NCBI GenBank assembly: GCA_964359035.1
Contig: CAYHRM010000001.1
Span: 1 to 35,530 of the forward strand
Direction: 5' to 3'
From: an uncultured Planctomycetales bacterium
GTDB taxonomy: Bacteria; Omnitrophota; Gorgyraeia; Gygaellales; Profunditerraquicolaceae
DNA length: 35,530 nt
Positions 17,057 through 33,850 of the stretch are shown here, piece after piece. Position numbers and translations under genes: made by a program. Each line of letters starts with the position of its first letter. Position 1 is the first letter of the stretch. Under the pieces are notes generated by a model, which was not told the DNA's origin, ran no database searches, and saw only the letters and a program-made list of their open reading frames with translations.

Positions 17057-17060
17057 CAAA

Positions 17061-17149
17061 ATTAGGGGACGCTTCTATTTTTTAAAATAATTGTAGCGGA
17101 GGTTTAAACCTCCGCTACTTAATCATAATAAATAGAAACGTCCCCTAAT
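17061..17149. repeat. Family-A inverted repeat, copy A1 (20-nt arms, 49-nt spacer)
   Basis: The arms are ATTAGGGGACGCTTCTATTT (17061..17080) and AAATAGAAACGTCCCCTAAT (17130..17149), complementary at 19 of 20 positions. The right arm includes the stop codon of the upstream gene. Confidence 0.85.
17093..17118. repeat. Family-B perfect palindrome, copy B1
   Basis: GTAGCGGAGGTTTAAACCTCCGCTAC is a 26-nt perfect palindrome centred on GTTTAAAC. It sits inside the spacer of A1. Confidence 0.85.
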
Positions 17150-17892
17150 TAAAACGGAATACTGACACCTGCTTCAATTGCCTGTTCTTTTTGGCGGGAT
17201 TTTAGTCTTAAGAAAACTTCAGCATCGAGATGCTCTAGGAATTTATGAGTCATGATGAGAGTTATGCCTACGGATTTGCCTAATTCATTTTTAAGCGCAA
17301 AGATAACTTTGTTAGGGCCAAAAGTTACCGTTGCGCCAAATTCTATCGATTTAATATTGCCTTGGCCATAATCCATTTGGAAAGTTAACCCTAAGTTGCG
17401 GCCGAATTTCCATTCGCCAAAAAGAATAATCAGCTGACCAGGTGCTGTCAGGCGACTTTGACGCAGGCCTACGCCAATACGATAACGAATCTCTCCTTTT
17501 TTTGGATAAAACGTGGGTGATTCAAGTTGGACCTTGAATTCAAAACGCGAAGTCGAGCTGCCTTCAAGAAAATAAACCAGGCAATTAGCTGAAGATATGT
17601 TCCAATAGCCCTTAAAGGTTAATGAGTCGCGGCCATCTTCAGATGTATATTCAATCTGCTGATATTTGTTTAGTTTCCAGCTTCCCTTAAAGATATAAGT
17701 CTCCGGTGGGCCTTTGTGGCCAGTAACTTCAAAACAAAGTTCATTGTAATCATTGGCGCGCCAAGTGCCTTTAAGTTTAAGTATGCGCAGGCTTTGGCGA
17801 TGAGTTAAAGAATCAGTTTGGATGGTTTCAAGGACCAGGGAATTTGATTCAGCTACGATAAAACGCTTACGAATGCTGATTTTGGGCTTCAT
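17149..17892 (-). CDS. Hypothetical protein with internal KGxW repeats
   Basis: 247 aa. There are four spaced copies of the motif: LKLKGTWRAN, YIFKGSWKLN, LTFKGYWNIS and LILFGEWKFG. The composition suggests an all-beta protein. The C-terminus is ...EAGVSIPF. There is no N-terminal hydrophobic signal, and I recognise no family. The ATG lies 26 nt inside the upstream gene. Confidence 0.6.
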   Translation of the reverse strand: MKPKISIRKRFIVAESNSLVLETIQTDSLTHRQSLRILKLKGTWRANDYNELCFEVTGHKGPPETYIFKGSWKLNKYQQIEYTSEDGRDSLTFKGYWNISSANCLVYFLEGSSTSRFEFKVQLESPTFYPKKGEIRYRIGVGLRQSRLTAPGQLIILFGEWKFGRNLGLTFQMDYGQGNIKSIEFGATVTFGPNKVIFALKNELGKSVGITLIMTHKFLEHLDAEVFLRLKSRQKEQAIEAGVSIPF

Positions 17893-18925
17893 AAATTTCT
17901 TTAATTGTATCTTCTACTCCATGCATACAACTCCAAGCAGGATAATGCGTTTTGAATTTAGAAGCATCACTAATCCACCAAATGTGGTCACCAATACGGT
18001 GGTTATCAATATATTCATAATTAAACTTCTCACCGGTTAATTTCTCACACATTTTAATTGCCTCTAAAATAGAAACACTTGCTGACCTGCCAGAGCCGAT
18101 ATTGTAAACCTCGCCACAACGCGGATTCTTAAAATAATGGTCAAACGCGCTCACCAGGTCAAATGAATGAATATTATCCCTAACCTGTTTTCCTTTATAA
18201 CCAAAAATTCTATATTTACGTTTTGTTACAGCACATTTAACTAAGTAAGACAAAAAACCGTGTAATTCGGCACCAGAATGCGCCGGGCCAGTCAGGCATC
18301 CTCCTCTGAATATTCCTGTCTTAAGCTGGAAATATTTCCCATACTCCTGCGTCATAATATCCGCAGCAATTTTTGATGCACCAAAAATTGAGTGTAAGCT
18401 ATTGTCAATGCTCATAGACTCATCGATCCCCTGGTAATATCTATGGTCCTTCGCCAGATCAAAACGATGATCATTTTCAATATAAGACAAGTGATTTGGA
18501 GAATCACCATAAACCTTACTCGTAGAAGTAAAAATAAAAACCGCCTGAGGGGAGAATTTGCGCAGAGCCTCAAGCATAATTAACGTACCTTGAGCATTAA
18601 CTCCAAAATCAACCAGCGGAGCCTTAACCGCCCAATCATGAGATGGCTGGGCCGCGACATGCACAATCAAAGCGATATCTTTATTGTATTTCTTAAATAT
18701 TGAATTTATTTTACCCTGATTGCGAATATCCACAGAATAATGCTGGTAATTTTTATAAAGCTTTTGCAGGCGTTTCTTATTCCAAAGAATTGAGCCGTCT
18801 GCGCCAAAAAAGCTTTTGCGCATATTATTATCAATCCCGACGATATCAAAGCCTTTGGCCGCAAAGAAACTCACCGTTTCAGAACCAATTAAACCACAAG
18901 AACCTGTAACAATAATAACGGACAT
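17867..18925 (-). CDS. NAD-dependent sugar-nucleotide epimerase/dehydratase (extended SDR, CDP-paratose-2-epimerase-like)
   Basis: 352 aa with IIVTGSCGLIGSETVSFF and FTSTSKVYGD. The catalytic YxxxK equivalent is FGASKIAAD. The TAATG junction shares 1 nt with the fic stop. Confidence 0.82.
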   Translation of the reverse strand: MSVIIVTGSCGLIGSETVSFFAAKGFDIVGIDNNMRKSFFGADGSILWNKKRLQKLYKNYQHYSVDIRNQGKINSIFKKYNKDIALIVHVAAQPSHDWAVKAPLVDFGVNAQGTLIMLEALRKFSPQAVFIFTSTSKVYGDSPNHLSYIENDHRFDLAKDHRYYQGIDESMSIDNSLHSIFGASKIAADIMTQEYGKYFQLKTGIFRGGCLTGPAHSGAELHGFLSYLVKCAVTKRKYRIFGYKGKQVRDNIHSFDLVSAFDHYFKNPRCGEVYNIGSGRSASVSILEAIKMCEKLTGEKFNYEYIDNHRIGDHIWWISDASKFKTHYPAWSCMHGVEDTIKEIYEAQNQHS

Positions 18926-19827
18926 TATATTCCTCTCAATAAATTATACCCTTTAATTACGCTATCGCAGATCATTTGAGCCATGTTTTTAAAATCACCC
19001 AGATCTCCTTTACCTAAAGCCATATAATATTTATAACGATCACTCAATTGAATAATGGCAGGAGCATAGCCTTTGTTTAAAAGCTGAGTAATTAAAATAA
19101 GCCTCCCCACCCGGCCATTTCCATCAAAAAAAGGATGTATGGCTTCAAAAACATAGTGATCACTAGCAACTTTGCCTATCGGATCCTTACCATAGCTGTT
19201 AATTTTAGCTATAAATTTACGCATTTCCAATGGCACTGCTTGAGCCGAAGGCAACTTCTTTTCTGTATTCGTCAAATTAACGTACCTCGTGCGATATTTA
19301 CCGGGAAGCTTATCATTAAAATTATACATAATAATTGAATGTAATTTTAAAATATAATTTTCATTGATTTTAAAACCCGGCTTTATTTCCTCCAATAAAA
19401 ACTCCAAGGCATTTTTATGATTAACCGCCTCAAAAACCTCAAAAATTTCCTTACCCTTTACTTTTTCACCTTTAAACGCCGCCGCAGTTTCTTTTAATGT
19501 CATCCGGCTACCTTCAATGGCATTTGAATTGTAAGTCATCTCAAGAATAAACTTAGCGCGAATCTCCCCAGAACCCCTAAGCATCTTAATTGGATCACCT
19601 AAATCAACCTTAAGTTTATTTACTAATTCCCTTAAATCTACATATTCTTTAAATAATTCATCAATTTTATGGGATTCGGCTCTATGCGGAAGGACAGACT
19701 TATCTAACCAGCGATAAACTGTCTTATAACTTACCTCAATAAGGCGAGCAAGCTCCGAACGGCTAATTTTAGCTTGTTTAATTATACTTTCTAATTTCTC
19801 TTTATCTGAAATAGAAACCGGTTTCAT
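18925..19827 (-). CDS. Fic-family protein with N-terminal HTH and Fic_N-type inhibitory motif
   Basis: 300 aa. The HTH is SRSELARLIEVSYKTVYRWLD. The inhibitory (S/T)xxxE(G/N) motif is SNAIEG. The Fic core is HPFFDGNGRVGRLI. The SD is GGGGAG. Confidence 0.9.
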   Translation of the reverse strand: MKPVSISDKEKLESIIKQAKISRSELARLIEVSYKTVYRWLDKSVLPHRAESHKIDELFKEYVDLRELVNKLKVDLGDPIKMLRGSGEIRAKFILEMTYNSNAIEGSRMTLKETAAAFKGEKVKGKEIFEVFEAVNHKNALEFLLEEIKPGFKINENYILKLHSIIMYNFNDKLPGKYRTRYVNLTNTEKKLPSAQAVPLEMRKFIAKINSYGKDPIGKVASDHYVFEAIHPFFDGNGRVGRLILITQLLNKGYAPAIIQLSDRYKYYMALGKGDLGDFKNMAQMICDSVIKGYNLLRGI

Positions 19828-19953: not shown

Positions 19954-20976
19954 TTATTTATAAAACTTATCCACATCACCTAACTTACTTTTAAGCCAAG
20001 CCTGATGCTTAAGCGACCAATCCGCTGTAAACTTAAGCCCCTGAAGAAGCTTAGCGCTCGGTTTCCAGCCAAGCTCTTGAGTAACTTTTTTAAAATTCAG
20101 GCTATATCTTAAATCATGGCCTAAACGATCCTTAACAAACTCAAATCTATCCTGGCTAACATGCATAATTTTTAACAATAATTTAACTGTATCCATATTC
20201 TTACTTTCACAGGCACTGCCTAAATTATAAATCTGCCCGATTCTGCCTTTATTCATAATTGTCAATATACCTTGCACGCAATCATCGACGTAAAGCCATT
20301 CACGCACATTTTGGCCGCGCCCATAAACTAGAATGTTTTCACCCTTTAATATTCTCAAAATAGCCAAAGGAATAAGTTTTTCCGGATACTGCCAAGGCCC
20401 ATAATTATTTGATGGCCGGATAATTATAGCAGGAAATTTATACGTTCGAACATATGACTGCACCAAAAGATCTGCGGCCGCCTTAGAAGCCGCGTAAGGG
20501 CTGTTTGGCTTAATTGGCGAATTCTCATTGAATTTACCCTTGGGGATCTCTCCATAAACTTCATCCGTAGAGATATGTATAAATTTACTTACTTTATATT
20601 TACGGCTAGCGTCCAGAAGTACTTGAGTTCCCTTAATGTTCGTATCGATAAACGGCGTGGCGTCATCAATGCTACGGTCCACGTGGCTTTCCGCAGCAAA
20701 ATGTAAAACTATTTCCGGTTTTTCTTTGGCAAAAATTAAATCAATTTGCTTTTTATGGCAAATATCAATTTTATAAAATTTAAATTTATTTTTTATTTCT
20801 TCAAGACGCTGAAGATCACCAGCATAGGTGAGTTTGTCGACAATAACAATATTAGATTGCTTCGGCGCTACGCGCCTCGCAATGACAGATGGATTGCCAA
20901 TGACGAGCCTTACAAAAGCGCTACCGATAAATCCTGCGCCGCCCGTAATTAAGATTTTAGGTATTCTTTTACGCAT
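19954..20976 (-). CDS. rfbB: dTDP-glucose 4,6-dehydratase
   Basis: 340 aa with ILITGGAGFIGSAFV, VDKLTYAGDL, HFAAESHVDRSI, HISTDEVYG and SPYAASKAAAD. It carries an extra segment, VIARRVAPKQS, in the loop after helix 1 (see findings). Confidence 0.92.
   Translation of the reverse strand: MRKRIPKILITGGAGFIGSAFVRLVIGNPSVIARRVAPKQSNIVIVDKLTYAGDLQRLEEIKNKFKFYKIDICHKKQIDLIFAKEKPEIVLHFAAESHVDRSIDDATPFIDTNIKGTQVLLDASRKYKVSKFIHISTDEVYGEIPKGKFNENSPIKPNSPYAASKAAADLLVQSYVRTYKFPAIIIRPSNNYGPWQYPEKLIPLAILRILKGENILVYGRGQNVREWLYVDDCVQGILTIMNKGRIGQIYNLGSACESKNMDTVKLLLKIMHVSQDRFEFVKDRLGHDLRYSLNFKKVTQELGWKPSAKLLQGLKFTADWSLKHQAWLKSKLGDVDKFYK
20855..20886 (-). repeat. Family-C repeat unit embedded in the rmlB coding sequence
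   Basis: The minus strand reads GTCATTGCGAGGCGCGTAGCGCCGAAGCAATC. It is identical at 29 of 32 positions to 25718..25749. Confidence 0.85.
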
Positions 20977-21770
20977 TCATCTAATACTAAATTAATGTTT
21001 CTTACTTTAAAACCTGATTTTTCAAGCTTACGAGTAGATAAAATCAGGTTGGTCCTGATTAGGCCCAACTTAACTGGGTCAACCACCGAATATTTAAATG
21101 CAGGTACATACTTTTGATATACCTGCATCAATCTCGAGTAACGCAGGCCACCCTTATTTACCAGATTATACACTCCCCGGGCGTCAATCTTTATCAAATG
21201 CTTGATTGCCTGGATAGCATCCGGAAGATAAGTTACAGAATTTGCTAAATCAATCACCTTTCCATGCTTAATAAGTTTATCTAAAATATTTTTAGGATGC
21301 TTAACATCAAGCAGCGGAATACGCATTCTCACAATGAGTATATTATAATCCCGGGCTAATGGCTCAATCGCCCTCTCCGCGTAAATTTTACTTCGGCTAT
21401 AAAATAACCTAAAAAAATAATCCTCACCATCTTCTTTTATCGATAAATTCTTTTGATAATCAAAATTAAATATGCAACCCGTACTAATCTGCACTAATTT
21501 GAGATGATTTCGCAGCGCAACTTCTGCCAGAATCAAGGGGATAAAACTATTGGAGAATAACGTTGCATCTTTTTCTAATTCACAATCATCAACATTACGC
21601 TTGCCGGTAATACCAATACAATTAATGATTACTTTAGGATTATATTTTTTAATCAGCTTTTGAGCATCGCTAAAACATTTTATCCTAGCGCCATCAATAC
21701 TACAATCCAGGCCTTTTTGCAGCCTTTGGCCCATAAAACCTTTTCCTAAAATCAAAATCTTTTTATTCAT
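20949..21770 (-). CDS. RmlD-like NAD(P)-dependent sugar-nucleotide reductase (dTDP-4-dehydrorhamnose reductase family)
   Basis: 273 aa with ILILGKGFMGQ, NCIGITGKRNVDDCE and QISTGCIF, plus the YxxxK motif YSRSK. It lies between rmlA and rmlB. Confidence 0.68.
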   Translation of the reverse strand: MNKKILILGKGFMGQRLQKGLDCSIDGARIKCFSDAQKLIKKYNPKVIINCIGITGKRNVDDCELEKDATLFSNSFIPLILAEVALRNHLKLVQISTGCIFNFDYQKNLSIKEDGEDYFFRLFYSRSKIYAERAIEPLARDYNILIVRMRIPLLDVKHPKNILDKLIKHGKVIDLANSVTYLPDAIQAIKHLIKIDARGVYNLVNKGGLRYSRLMQVYQKYVPAFKYSVVDPVKLGLIRTNLILSTRKLEKSGFKVRNINLVLDECVKEYLKS

Positions 21771-24073: not shown

Positions 24074-24083
24074 ATTTAAATCT

Positions 24084-24141
24084 GGGACCGTTTCTATTTT
24101 TCTAGGAACTGCCCCCATCAAATAAAAATAGAAACGGTCCC
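24084..24141. repeat. Family-A inverted repeat, copy A2 (18-nt perfect arms, 22-nt spacer)
   Basis: The arms are GGGACCGTTTCTATTTTT (24084..24101) and AAAAATAGAAACGGTCCC (24124..24141). The element fills the gap between the rpsA stop (24148) and the tyrS ATG (24073). Confidence 0.85.
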
Positions 24142-25716: not shown

Positions 25717-25786
25717 CGTCATTGCGAGGCACGAAGTGCCGAAGCAATCCCGTTAGAGAGATTGCTTCGCTTCGCTCGCAATGACG
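25717..25786. repeat. Family-C repeat: two units in inverted orientation
   Basis: The left unit is GTCATTGCGAGGCACGAAGTGCCGAAGCAATC (25718..25749). The right unit (25760..25785), reverse-complemented, reads GTCATTGCGAGCGAAGCGAAGCAATC. A 10-nt centre separates them. Confidence 0.85.
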
Positions 25787-25923
25787 GTAATTTGAACAGT
25801 AATATATTTAATTGTTTTCTTTATCTTAATCGTTAAACAAAATAGCCAAAGTCAACCGCTTTAATTTCATGACTTGGCTCCCCCTTTCTATGCGAATTTG
25901 TTCGTAGTATAAACCTCTCGATA

Positions 25924-27358: not shown

Positions 27359-27394
27359 CACCAGTAGTGGGGGTTTAAACCCCCACTACTGGTG
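27359..27394. repeat. Family-B perfect palindrome, copy B2
   Basis: CACCAGTAGTGGGGGTTTAAACCCCCACTACTGGTG is a 36-nt perfect palindrome between the rpe stop and the mutase start. No U-tract follows it on the transcribed strand. Confidence 0.85.
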
Positions 27395-31954: not shown

Positions 31955-31975
31955 GCTAAAAAATAGACAAATAAC

Positions 31976-32011
31976 CAGTAGTAGTGTGGGTTTAAACCCA
32001 CACTACTACTG
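31976..32011 (-). terminator. Family-B perfect palindrome, copy B3; plausible intrinsic terminator after rng
   Basis: CAGTAGTAGTGTGGGTTTAAACCCACACTACTACTG has a 15-bp stem. On the minus strand it is followed by GTTATTTGTCTATTTTTTAG. Confidence 0.55.
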
Positions 32012-32044
32012 TTAATAACTAGCTACCTCTGCCTACTTTTATTA

Positions 32045-33770: not shown

Positions 33771-33782
33771 ATTTTAAAATCT

Positions 33783-33838
33783 AGGGGCCGTTTCTATTTT
33801 TAATCCTAATCTAACCAAGAAAAGTAGAAACGGCCCCT
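33783..33838. repeat. Family-A inverted repeat, copy A3 (18-nt arms, 20-nt spacer)
   Basis: The arms are AGGGGCCGTTTCTATTTT (33783..33800) and AAAGTAGAAACGGCCCCT (33821..33838), complementary at 17 of 18 positions. The element lies between the secretin stop and the DUF2344 ATG. Confidence 0.85.
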
Positions 33839-33850
33839 GATTTCACAATT

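Follow-up and report, generated by a model that had tools for sequence, protein, structure and literature searches.

The rmlB gene of an uncultured bacterium placed by GTDB in the Omnitrophota (assembly GCA_964359035.1, named in GenBank as a Planctomycetales bacterium; contig CAYHRM010000001.1, positions 1 to 35,530, the stretch of 35,530 nt called the window below) carries within its coding sequence a 32-nt palindrome, GTCATTGCGAGGCGCGTAGCGCCGAAGCAATC, on the minus strand at 20855-20886 (20886 down to 20855), which is translated in frame as VIARRVAPKQS, residues 31-41 of the RmlB protein. We think it very probable that this is a non-autonomous variant of the CGTC-tagged repetitive extragenic palindromic (REP) sequences, that it was inserted in frame into the DNA for a loop of RmlB a long time ago, and that this loop is a hotspot on which palindromes have landed repeatedly. 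The unit as a whole (20853..20887, -) consists of a TGTC head (20887-20884), the 32-mer (20886-20855) and a CTA tail (20855-20853), and the stretch across the repeat-encoded part of rmlB reads ...GNPSVIARRVAPKQSNIV... The palindrome had been pointed out in a first-pass annotation made from the letters alone, and its position, strand and translation are as described there.

The element is an insertion, in frame, into the loop that joins helix 1 to strand 2 in RmlB. The identity of the host gene (19954..20976, -, 340 aa) as a dTDP-glucose 4,6-dehydratase is secure: its open reading frame (ORF) scores 410.5 bits against the TIGR01181 profile for that enzyme (cut-off 365.1), RmlB homologues in the PDB match its product at E ~1e-86, the AlphaFold (AF2) model of the window protein superposes on RmlB crystal structures with template modelling (TM) scores of 0.77-0.81, and the catalytic and NAD/cofactor motifs are invariant among the 50 orthologues compared. 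By the source names of its closest homologues the bacterium belongs to Candidatus Omnitrophota. When the protein is aligned with the RmlBs of B. anthracis, E. coli and P. horikoshii (6bi4, 1bxk, 2hun), these show a gap of 8-10 residues exactly opposite VIARRVAPKQ, in agreement with the earlier proposal that the extra residues of the loop are those of the repeat. The presence/absence comparison and structure prediction that had been proposed as checks point the same way: the segment from GFIGS to DKLTYAG has 27 residues in the window and 16, which we call the basal length (e.g. AFVRLLVKNGISPVVV), in 34 of 69 related metagenomic loci, and the AlphaFold model has a helix at residues 16-27, a loop at 28-42 and a strand at 43-46, with a predicted local distance difference test (pLDDT) value below 50 at residues 33-38. 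Judging from this model, the 11-residue insert probably forms a disordered surface loop. The geometry usual for a Rossmann fold would put the helix 1-strand 2 loop at the sheet edge that is opposite the NAD site, and it is because of this location that RmlB would tolerate the insert. The composition of the element is also foreign to its surroundings, at 62.5% GC in a window of 38%, with a GC content at third codon positions (GC3) of 0.64 vs 0.345 in the rest of rmlB.

The first-pass annotation had further suggested that a hairpin of the intergenic type entered a surface loop without breaking the frame, and this view is sustained by the basal loci and the modelled loop, and by the recurrence of the element elsewhere. 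A second copy of the 32-mer lies at 25718-25749(+), in the spacer upstream of rpsA, with three mismatches (29/32) as previously reported and with none expected in shuffled sequence. What had been overlooked is a third copy at 25761-25785(-), found with a looser pattern, which has a short core and is inverted (GTCATTGCGAGCGAAGCGAAGCAAT), so that the site upstream of rpsA is an inverted doublet and not a single unit. Unit 1 (25717..25751, +) has a CGTC head, the core GGCACGAAGTGCC and a CCC tail and folds at -12.8 kcal/mol (z -3.6), and unit 2 (25758..25786, -) has a CGTC head and is the short-core variant GTCATTGCGAGCGAAGCGAAGCAATC; together they form a doublet with the tags outside, head-to-head or 'HH' in the published terminology, between a pgm-like gene and rpsA, which folds as a single long hairpin of -43.9 kcal/mol (z -7.1). 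The 32-mer within rmlB is predicted to fold just as the earlier description had it, with a 5-bp outer stem, an internal loop, a 5-bp inner stem and a triloop (-14.3 kcal/mol, z = -3.1). A scan of the whole window with the Rfam 15 covariance models at the gathering score gave no match, and a scan of the doublet region at E <= 10 gave matches at chance level only (E >= 0.09).

That there was no insertion at all, the loop having lengthened in this lineage with a chance similarity to a repeat or the contig having been wrongly assembled, is vanishingly improbable. Only the shortness of the element speaks for it, whereas shuffled sequences are expected to yield no match, the same element stands in the same loop in several other metagenomes, and its family extends over many phyla. 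An assembly artefact is excluded because the identical 340-aa RmlB is encoded on contigs of four independent groundwater metagenome assemblies.

The occurrence of this family of elements, called family a here to set it apart from the families b to g introduced below, in many bacterial phyla is a new result. The family search, in which each species was represented by one genome, gave at least 172 copies at no fewer than 120 loci, and all counts are among the matches listed. The hosts are Alpha- and Gammaproteobacteria, Bacteroidota, Chloroflexota, Cyanobacteria, Patescibacteria and Planctomycetota, further Desulfobacterota, Campylobacterota, Bacillota and others, with Bradyrhizobium, Sphingomonas, Pedobacter, Mucilaginibacter, Sporomusa and Helicobacter rodentium among the isolate genomes; Omnitrophota DNA (the window and related loci) holds 20 copies, three of them in the 35.5-kb window. 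The copies share the arms GTCATTGCGAG...GAAGCAATC around a core of 4-20 nt, most commonly CGAAGC. GTC is preceded by C in 109 of the 172 listed copies and by T in 57, which gives the CGTC/TGTC head (TGTC, CGTC and CGTC in the window), and GCAAT is followed by C, then by C (107) or T (54), then by A (91) or C (67), the tails in the window being CTA, CCC and CTC; C-A-G and T-C are the favoured continuations. Compensatory changes are found at four of the five pairs of the inner helix, a value reached by none of 500 shuffles; the outer helix ATTGC...GCAAT is invariant, but it is fixed by the search pattern. An inner hairpin and a pyrimidine ahead of GTC are seen even in single matches. Dimers with tags outside (HH), inside (tail-to-tail, TT) or in tandem (head-to-tail, HT) stand at 38:4:2 in other phyla and at 4:0:0 in Omnitrophota. 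A full-text literature search for CATTGCGAG and related strings returned primer matches only, and one on Omnitrophota and palindromic repeats returned nothing relevant.

The first-pass annotation knew of no assigned function or mobility mechanism for the element, which is fair as stated, but the element does fit a published class. When likened by published description, not by consensus sequence, the 32-mer matches most features of the superfamily of CGTC-tagged REPs reported from five phyla by Di Nocera, De Gregorio and Rocco (2013, BMC Genomics 14:522; PMC3733652), of which it would be a structural variant. These REPs have a CGTC/TGTC head (TGTC or CCTC are allowed as variants of the tetranucleotide), a stem starting with A-T and a tail near CCA, and their dimers are predominantly HH, with TT rare and HT negligible (PMC3733652). 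They are without a known associated transposase, in-frame intragenic units are documented, and the superfamily includes RPE-4 and RPE-6 of Rickettsia and dRS3 of Neisseria (PMC3733652). Family a is alike in being a short dispersed palindrome (20-40 bp class; 32 nt in the window) with an unpaired CGTC/TGTC head, a stem that opens with A-T pairs (ATTGC...GCAAT) and a predominance of HH dimers, often of unlike partners, and its hosts overlap (Bradyrhizobium, Micavibrio, Novosphingobium and other sphingomonads); its 3-nt tail may be likened to CCA. It differs in that its spread is much wider than the five phyla surveyed and in the build of its stem: the families CGTC-1 to CGTC-4 have a continuous 8-9-bp stem and a 4-5-nt loop (PMC3733652), whereas family a has a 5-bp outer stem, a 2x3 (GA/GAA) internal loop, an inner stem of 2-6 bp and the variable core. 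The interrupted stem and variable core thus argue for a structural variant of the superfamily and not for membership in CGTC-1 to -4. This variant occurs in Omnitrophota, a phylum outside the 2013 survey.

A palindrome of REP type that is translated in frame is of a kind already known. Rickettsia palindromic elements (RPEs) are repeats found in frame in housekeeping genes and translated at positions regarded as compatible with the fold, those first reported being ~150 bp long and confined to Rickettsia (PMC10969869). The classic members of the families RPE-1 to RPE-10 measure ~100-150 bp. The rmlB element resembles them in being an in-frame translated palindrome in a functional gene, with the ORF intact, the motifs conserved and the insert in a loop. 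It differs in length (32 nt vs ~150 bp for those first reported) and in distribution, as RPE insertions are spread over many unrelated genes and the colonisation of a single loop by several families is not described in the sources reviewed. The GTAG-tagged REPs of E. coli and Pseudomonas and their doublets (REP doublet forming hairpins, REPINs), which go with REP-associated tyrosine (RAYT) transposases and are proposed to move as single-stranded hairpins, are similar in size class, hairpin shape and the formation of inverted doublets, but the tag of family a is CGTC/TGTC, not GTAG, and a RAYT gene was not seen near the copies examined. One of the other families, d (GTAG...CTAC), may belong with the GTAG REPs and REPINs. 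Miniature inverted-repeat transposable elements, at 70-300 bp and with terminal inverted repeats and a target-site duplication, differ from a unit of 24-40 nt, and no target-site duplication is visible at the family-a junctions in rmlB or in the spacers examined.

The copy in rmlB is, to judge from comparison with related loci, old. Among the DNA loci (contigs) compared, which are given L-numbers (P-numbers denote RmlB orthologue proteins), L126, L205 and L206 share with the window a common core, GGCGCGTAGCGCC (0-1 changes), and the same right junction. The intergenic doublet (window 25717-25786) is likewise syntenic in L126:4199-4270 and L205:5190-5260; it is absent in L206 and others, the pgm-rpsA spacer of other genomes has family e, another palindrome family or nothing at the same spot, and in L125 and L128 a family-a doublet is located between rpsA and tyrS instead. 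The nucleotides of the rmlB element are conserved beyond what its codons need, which is also a new result. Between the window and L126, 33 of 33 nt and all 11 third codon positions of the element are identical, vs 76% of nucleotides and 54% of third positions in the rest of the gene, and the chance of 11 out of 11 at 54% is 0.54^11 or ~0.001. In ten pairwise comparisons 8-11 of the 11 third positions in the element are identical, vs 39-57% elsewhere, and L205 and L206 have one and three changes in the element relative to the window. The amino acids of the core vary by lineage (RRVAP, RSEAT, RCETP) through changes that largely keep the stem; the peptide VIARSEATKQS, which the first-pass annotation had mentioned as of a type occurring in hypothetical proteins of metagenomic genomes, occurs literally in L125 and L146. 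Since the nucleotides are conserved while the core peptide varies, constraint or homogenisation would act on the nucleic acid, not on the peptide.

It might be thought instead that each lineage gained its family-a copy separately, by site-specific insertion at the same position of rmlB. The cores do differ with compensatory changes (GGCGC/GCGCC, GGAGC/GCGAC, GGTG/CACC), all left junctions read TC(C/T)|GT(C/T)ATTGCGAG, and insert types are scattered on a neighbour-joining (NJ) tree. However, the core and right junction shared by the window, L126, L205 and L206 fit descent, basal loops show no conserved target motif, and for proteins this much alike an NJ tree has poor resolution, so that we regard independent insertion as quite unlikely. 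At L206:10057-10180 (protein P0010) the element is fused directly to the codon for Leu24 and has three substitutions; no other family-a copy was found in the 14.5 kb of this locus examined, nor a doublet upstream of rpsA, and this state may represent decay after loss of the family.

Five nucleotides upstream of the element in the mRNA lies a 13-mer, GTCATTGGCAATC (20892..20904, -; codons V25-I-G-N-P29), which, as the first-pass annotation correctly pointed out, equals the 7 + 6 terminal nt of the unit. It is unique in the window, where ~0.03 matches are expected at <=1 mismatch. The interpretation offered at that time, an unfilled target, a footprint or a partial duplication, does not stand up well to comparison. 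An exact match to both ends of the unit so close to it does invite the idea of a relic, be it an unfilled target, an excision footprint or a tandem copy minus its 19-nt core, the more so as the head of the 13-mer follows the Leu24 codon, exactly where a full element has its head in P0004, P0010, P0016 and P0074, as the L126 version, ATCGGCGAT, retains a 9-nt palindrome, and as the 18 nt that separate the two GTCATTG repeats are missing from L206, a sign of possible slippage. Yet the 18 nt at the orthologous site vary freely (GTCATCGGCGATT in L126, ATTTTCAGTAACC in L205, ATTTTCAATGACC in L146, GTTCTCAAGTGTC in L150) next to a true element that is almost invariant, and they align with host loop codons (LVKNG) of basal orthologues. 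Tandem family-a dimers are rare (2/44 among the matches listed), no copy of the 13-mer occurs in 875 kb with 181 elements from other phyla, and 729 kb of Omnitrophota DNA contain it at one other site only, L144/L148, which is unrelated. A relic is therefore distinctly improbable, and the 13-mer most likely represents host loop codons that resemble the element ends by chance. Its GTCATTG nevertheless forms a 7-nt direct repeat with the head of the element, and taking the 18 nt between the two out of the window sequence gives that of L206; it is plausible, and we infer from these sequences, that replication slippage between the repeats produced the L206 form, which would explain the RL|VIAR junction of P0004, P0010 and others.

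This loop is a hotspot. Remnants of at least six palindrome families are lodged in it in 102 of the 120 closest RmlB orthologues (72-82% identity), which again is a new result. Twelve of the 120 have loops of basal length, six have 1-4 extra residues and the 102 have 5-31. The peptides are those of family a (VIAR..KQS or, in reverse orientation, DCF..LAMT), family b (GLSPKGTVP), family c (NKWDRFYFS..KNRNGP), family d (CRRGGLNLPYG), family e (RDGSQLKAELSP..FSFGLRTVP), family f (GDSSPIGLRNVP) and family g (ACLPAGR, nested inside other families). In the locus DNA 21 of 24 inserts at the main site are strong hairpins, and families a, c and d are among those found intergenically in the window. Composite and half elements are frequent: the loop of L196 has basal length yet contains GACGAAGCAATCTC, L135 has ATTGCGAGG followed by a family-b hairpin with a nested insert, and L142 translates a family-c arm together with a family-d palindrome (KEWGRFYSCRRGGLNLPYG), the same composite that is found at 17058-17150 in the window.

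Over the full orthologue alignment all RmlB indels fall at residues ~25-41 or ~57-65, except for single C-terminal differences; in E. coli RmlB, three other loops tolerate indels of 2 to ~11 residues. No insertion of five residues or more was found on the same contigs in rmlD (n=61), rmlA (53), tyrS (24), the epimerase (21), rpsA (20) or pgm (15), and because these six neighbouring gene families have none, an overall abundance of repeats within genes does not account for the hotspot. The pgm-rpsA spacer resembles the loop in that its occupant, too, changes from genome to genome. A likeness exists in Xanthomonas campestris and X. oryzae, which have different REPs at about the same site of recB (PMC3733652), that is, unrelated REPs at roughly one position of a coding gene in related species, but that is one anecdotal site in two species as compared with 102/120 orthologues and at least six families in RmlB, where elements are also nested or halved and a minor hotspot exists besides the main one. 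On an NJ tree of the 120 orthologues with the loops masked the insert types are intermixed, and the resolution is too poor to count independent events.

The minor hotspot at RmlB residues ~57-65 (window ~20785-20810) is occupied in P0068, P0099, P0107, P0118, L137 and L166, mostly by family b (DIGKRGLSPKGTVPFYK) and also by a palindrome of TPCEAECPL type, and in P0040 and P0066 a repeat has taken the place of host residues there, the length staying the same or nearly so. Other genes also contain translated family-b copies (GLSPxGTVP; L155:15682-15834, L154:2020-2046, L176:1917-1943, L126:16177-16953), in one case three of them in tandem midway along an ORF, and 11 of 16 strict family-b copies lie in long open frames, in a sample enriched for rmlB.

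The gene upstream of rmlB is rmlD-like (20949..21770, -; from the ORF list, with Pfam RmlD_sub_bind on the L205 orthologue). Its stop overlaps the start of rmlB by 28 nt, as in most related loci, and the REP unit lies ~60 nt downstream of its stop codon. A cause of the hotspot in this overlap alone, the loop being the first permissive site after an overlapping gene, was considered and is weakened by rmlD itself, which also overlaps its upstream gene and has no insertions. A different matter is whether the hairpin has been exapted, that is, kept in rmlB for a role in RNA or DNA such as an intra-operon stabiliser or processing site after rmlD, as intergenic REPs do behind the ORFs upstream of them, the coding loop being the first place able to accommodate such a hairpin. 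The conservation of nucleotides over a varying peptide would be expected from this, as would the persistence of a GC-rich hairpin in an AT-rich genome; the overlap leaves no intergenic space in most loci, both hotspots lie within the first 65 of 340 residues, and the reported position of REPs is in most cases immediately 3' of an ORF (PMC3733652). Set against this, rmlA and rmlD overlap too, yet rmlD (n=61) is without insertion, half of the wider orthologue set has no hairpin at all, decayed copies exist, and no clear difference is seen at loci where a spacer precedes rmlB. We consider exaptation unlikely.

In the scenario that we favour, a palindrome of REP class, unable to move by itself, would have inserted in frame into the DNA for the helix 1-strand 2 loop of RmlB, and further families would then have landed in or beside it while older ones were partly deleted, leaving composite and half elements. 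Selection would have retained only inserts that are free of stop codons and have a length that is a multiple of three. Mobility would be directed by the hairpin and act in trans, either through single-strand transposition of the IS200/RAYT type or through the repair of breaks at extruded hairpins, with other copies as the template.

Several observations weigh against this scenario. Family a departs from the 8-9-bp stem and 4-5-nt loop of the published CGTC REPs, and the sample of 120 orthologues is slightly biased toward the insert type of the query. Conservation of the element is not universal, as there are decayed copies in L206 and several orthologues (VIASPKGAKQS, VIATRQSS..KQS). The ORFs between copy pairs at six loci, in a survey that was not systematic, are housekeeping genes, with no mobilising gene adjoining the copies. 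Neither the Omnitrophota spacers nor the Methylobacterium plasmids provide a clean filled/empty pair with a target-site signature, the flanks in the pgm-rpsA spacer of 15 genomes being too AT-rich and diverged to place junctions. The putative role of the loop as a landing pad is inferred from the composite remnants and the contrast with neighbouring genes, and a similar picture could arise if one old insertion had later undergone gene conversion or if genomes had recombined their N-terminal segments.

The Methylobacterium plasmids L207, L209 and L210 deserve a word of their own. In the spacer 3' of fdhF a unit of ~140 nt, holding a CGTC doublet of the variant CGTCCTTGCGAG...GCAATCCAG, is present 0, 1 or 2 times between flanks that are ~95% identical; another palindrome is found on the allele that lacks the unit, which leaves no clean junction to read. 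The case shows a recent change of copy number in a related variant and reveals no mechanism of insertion. On a Patescibacteria contig (L050:556-1838) an ORF fragment of 184 aa resembling a transposase lies between two inverted family-a units; this exception to the housekeeping genes is a single case and probably coincidental.

It is tempting to go further and suppose that unrelated REP families, CGTC-tagged, GTAG-tagged and others, home to existing palindromes, that a single accidental insertion in frame thereby made the RmlB loop a self-reinforcing landing pad across Omnitrophota, and that the hairpins are kept at the nucleotide level because they also serve the rmlA-rmlD-rmlB operon as an RNA or DNA structure. 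We put this forward tentatively and as somewhat unlikely.

Palindromes of families c and d are found elsewhere in the window. At 17058..17150 a family-d palindrome GTAG...CTAC is nested between the arms of a family-c GGGGnCGTTTCTATTTT doublet, and in some frames this composite would read RGRFYF, SGGLNLRY or KNRNVP, peptides that are present in the RmlB loop of other orthologues. Further family-d palindromes lie at 27359..27394 (GTAG-TGGGGGTTTAAACCCCCA-CTAC) and 31971..32016, a family-c inverted doublet at 33777..33843, and a single family-c element between rpsA and tyrS at 24078..24106. The mechanically assigned TTG start of tyrS at 24121 reads through this last element (window 24078-24121) after the rpsA stop, and the real start is probably the downstream Met (MDIEKQ...). 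A motif, CATAGAAAGGGGGAGCCnnATCAnGAAA, is conserved upstream of rpsA in 15 of 15 loci examined, even where the upstream gene differs (window 25858-25900, -; 100-150 nt upstream of rpsA in L125-L206); it has no Rfam match, and a leader of rpsA, a promoter and a small RNA are all conceivable. Directly downstream of rmlB is a gene for a Fic-domain protein (window 18925-19827, -), which is present at the L205 locus and absent at L206.

As in-frame translated palindromes have been known since the RPEs of Rickettsia, a single case such as that of the window would be nothing unusual. The interest lies in scale and contrast, with at least six families in one loop across most of the orthologues compared and none in six neighbouring genes, and in the finding that the inserted DNA is conserved more strictly than the protein it encodes. 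For annotation, a metagenomic protein with a peptide such as VIARSEATKQS, GLSPKGTVP, NKWDRFYFS or GGLNLPYG contains a translated repeat and not a feature of a domain, and such peptides inflate apparent protein diversity. The RmlB loci offer a small set of comparative data on a question that the 2013 study had to leave unanswered, namely how CGTC REPs that have no transposase move, pick their targets and persist. If the landing-pad reading is true, this locus would be a natural record of how CGTC REPs choose their targets and replace one another.

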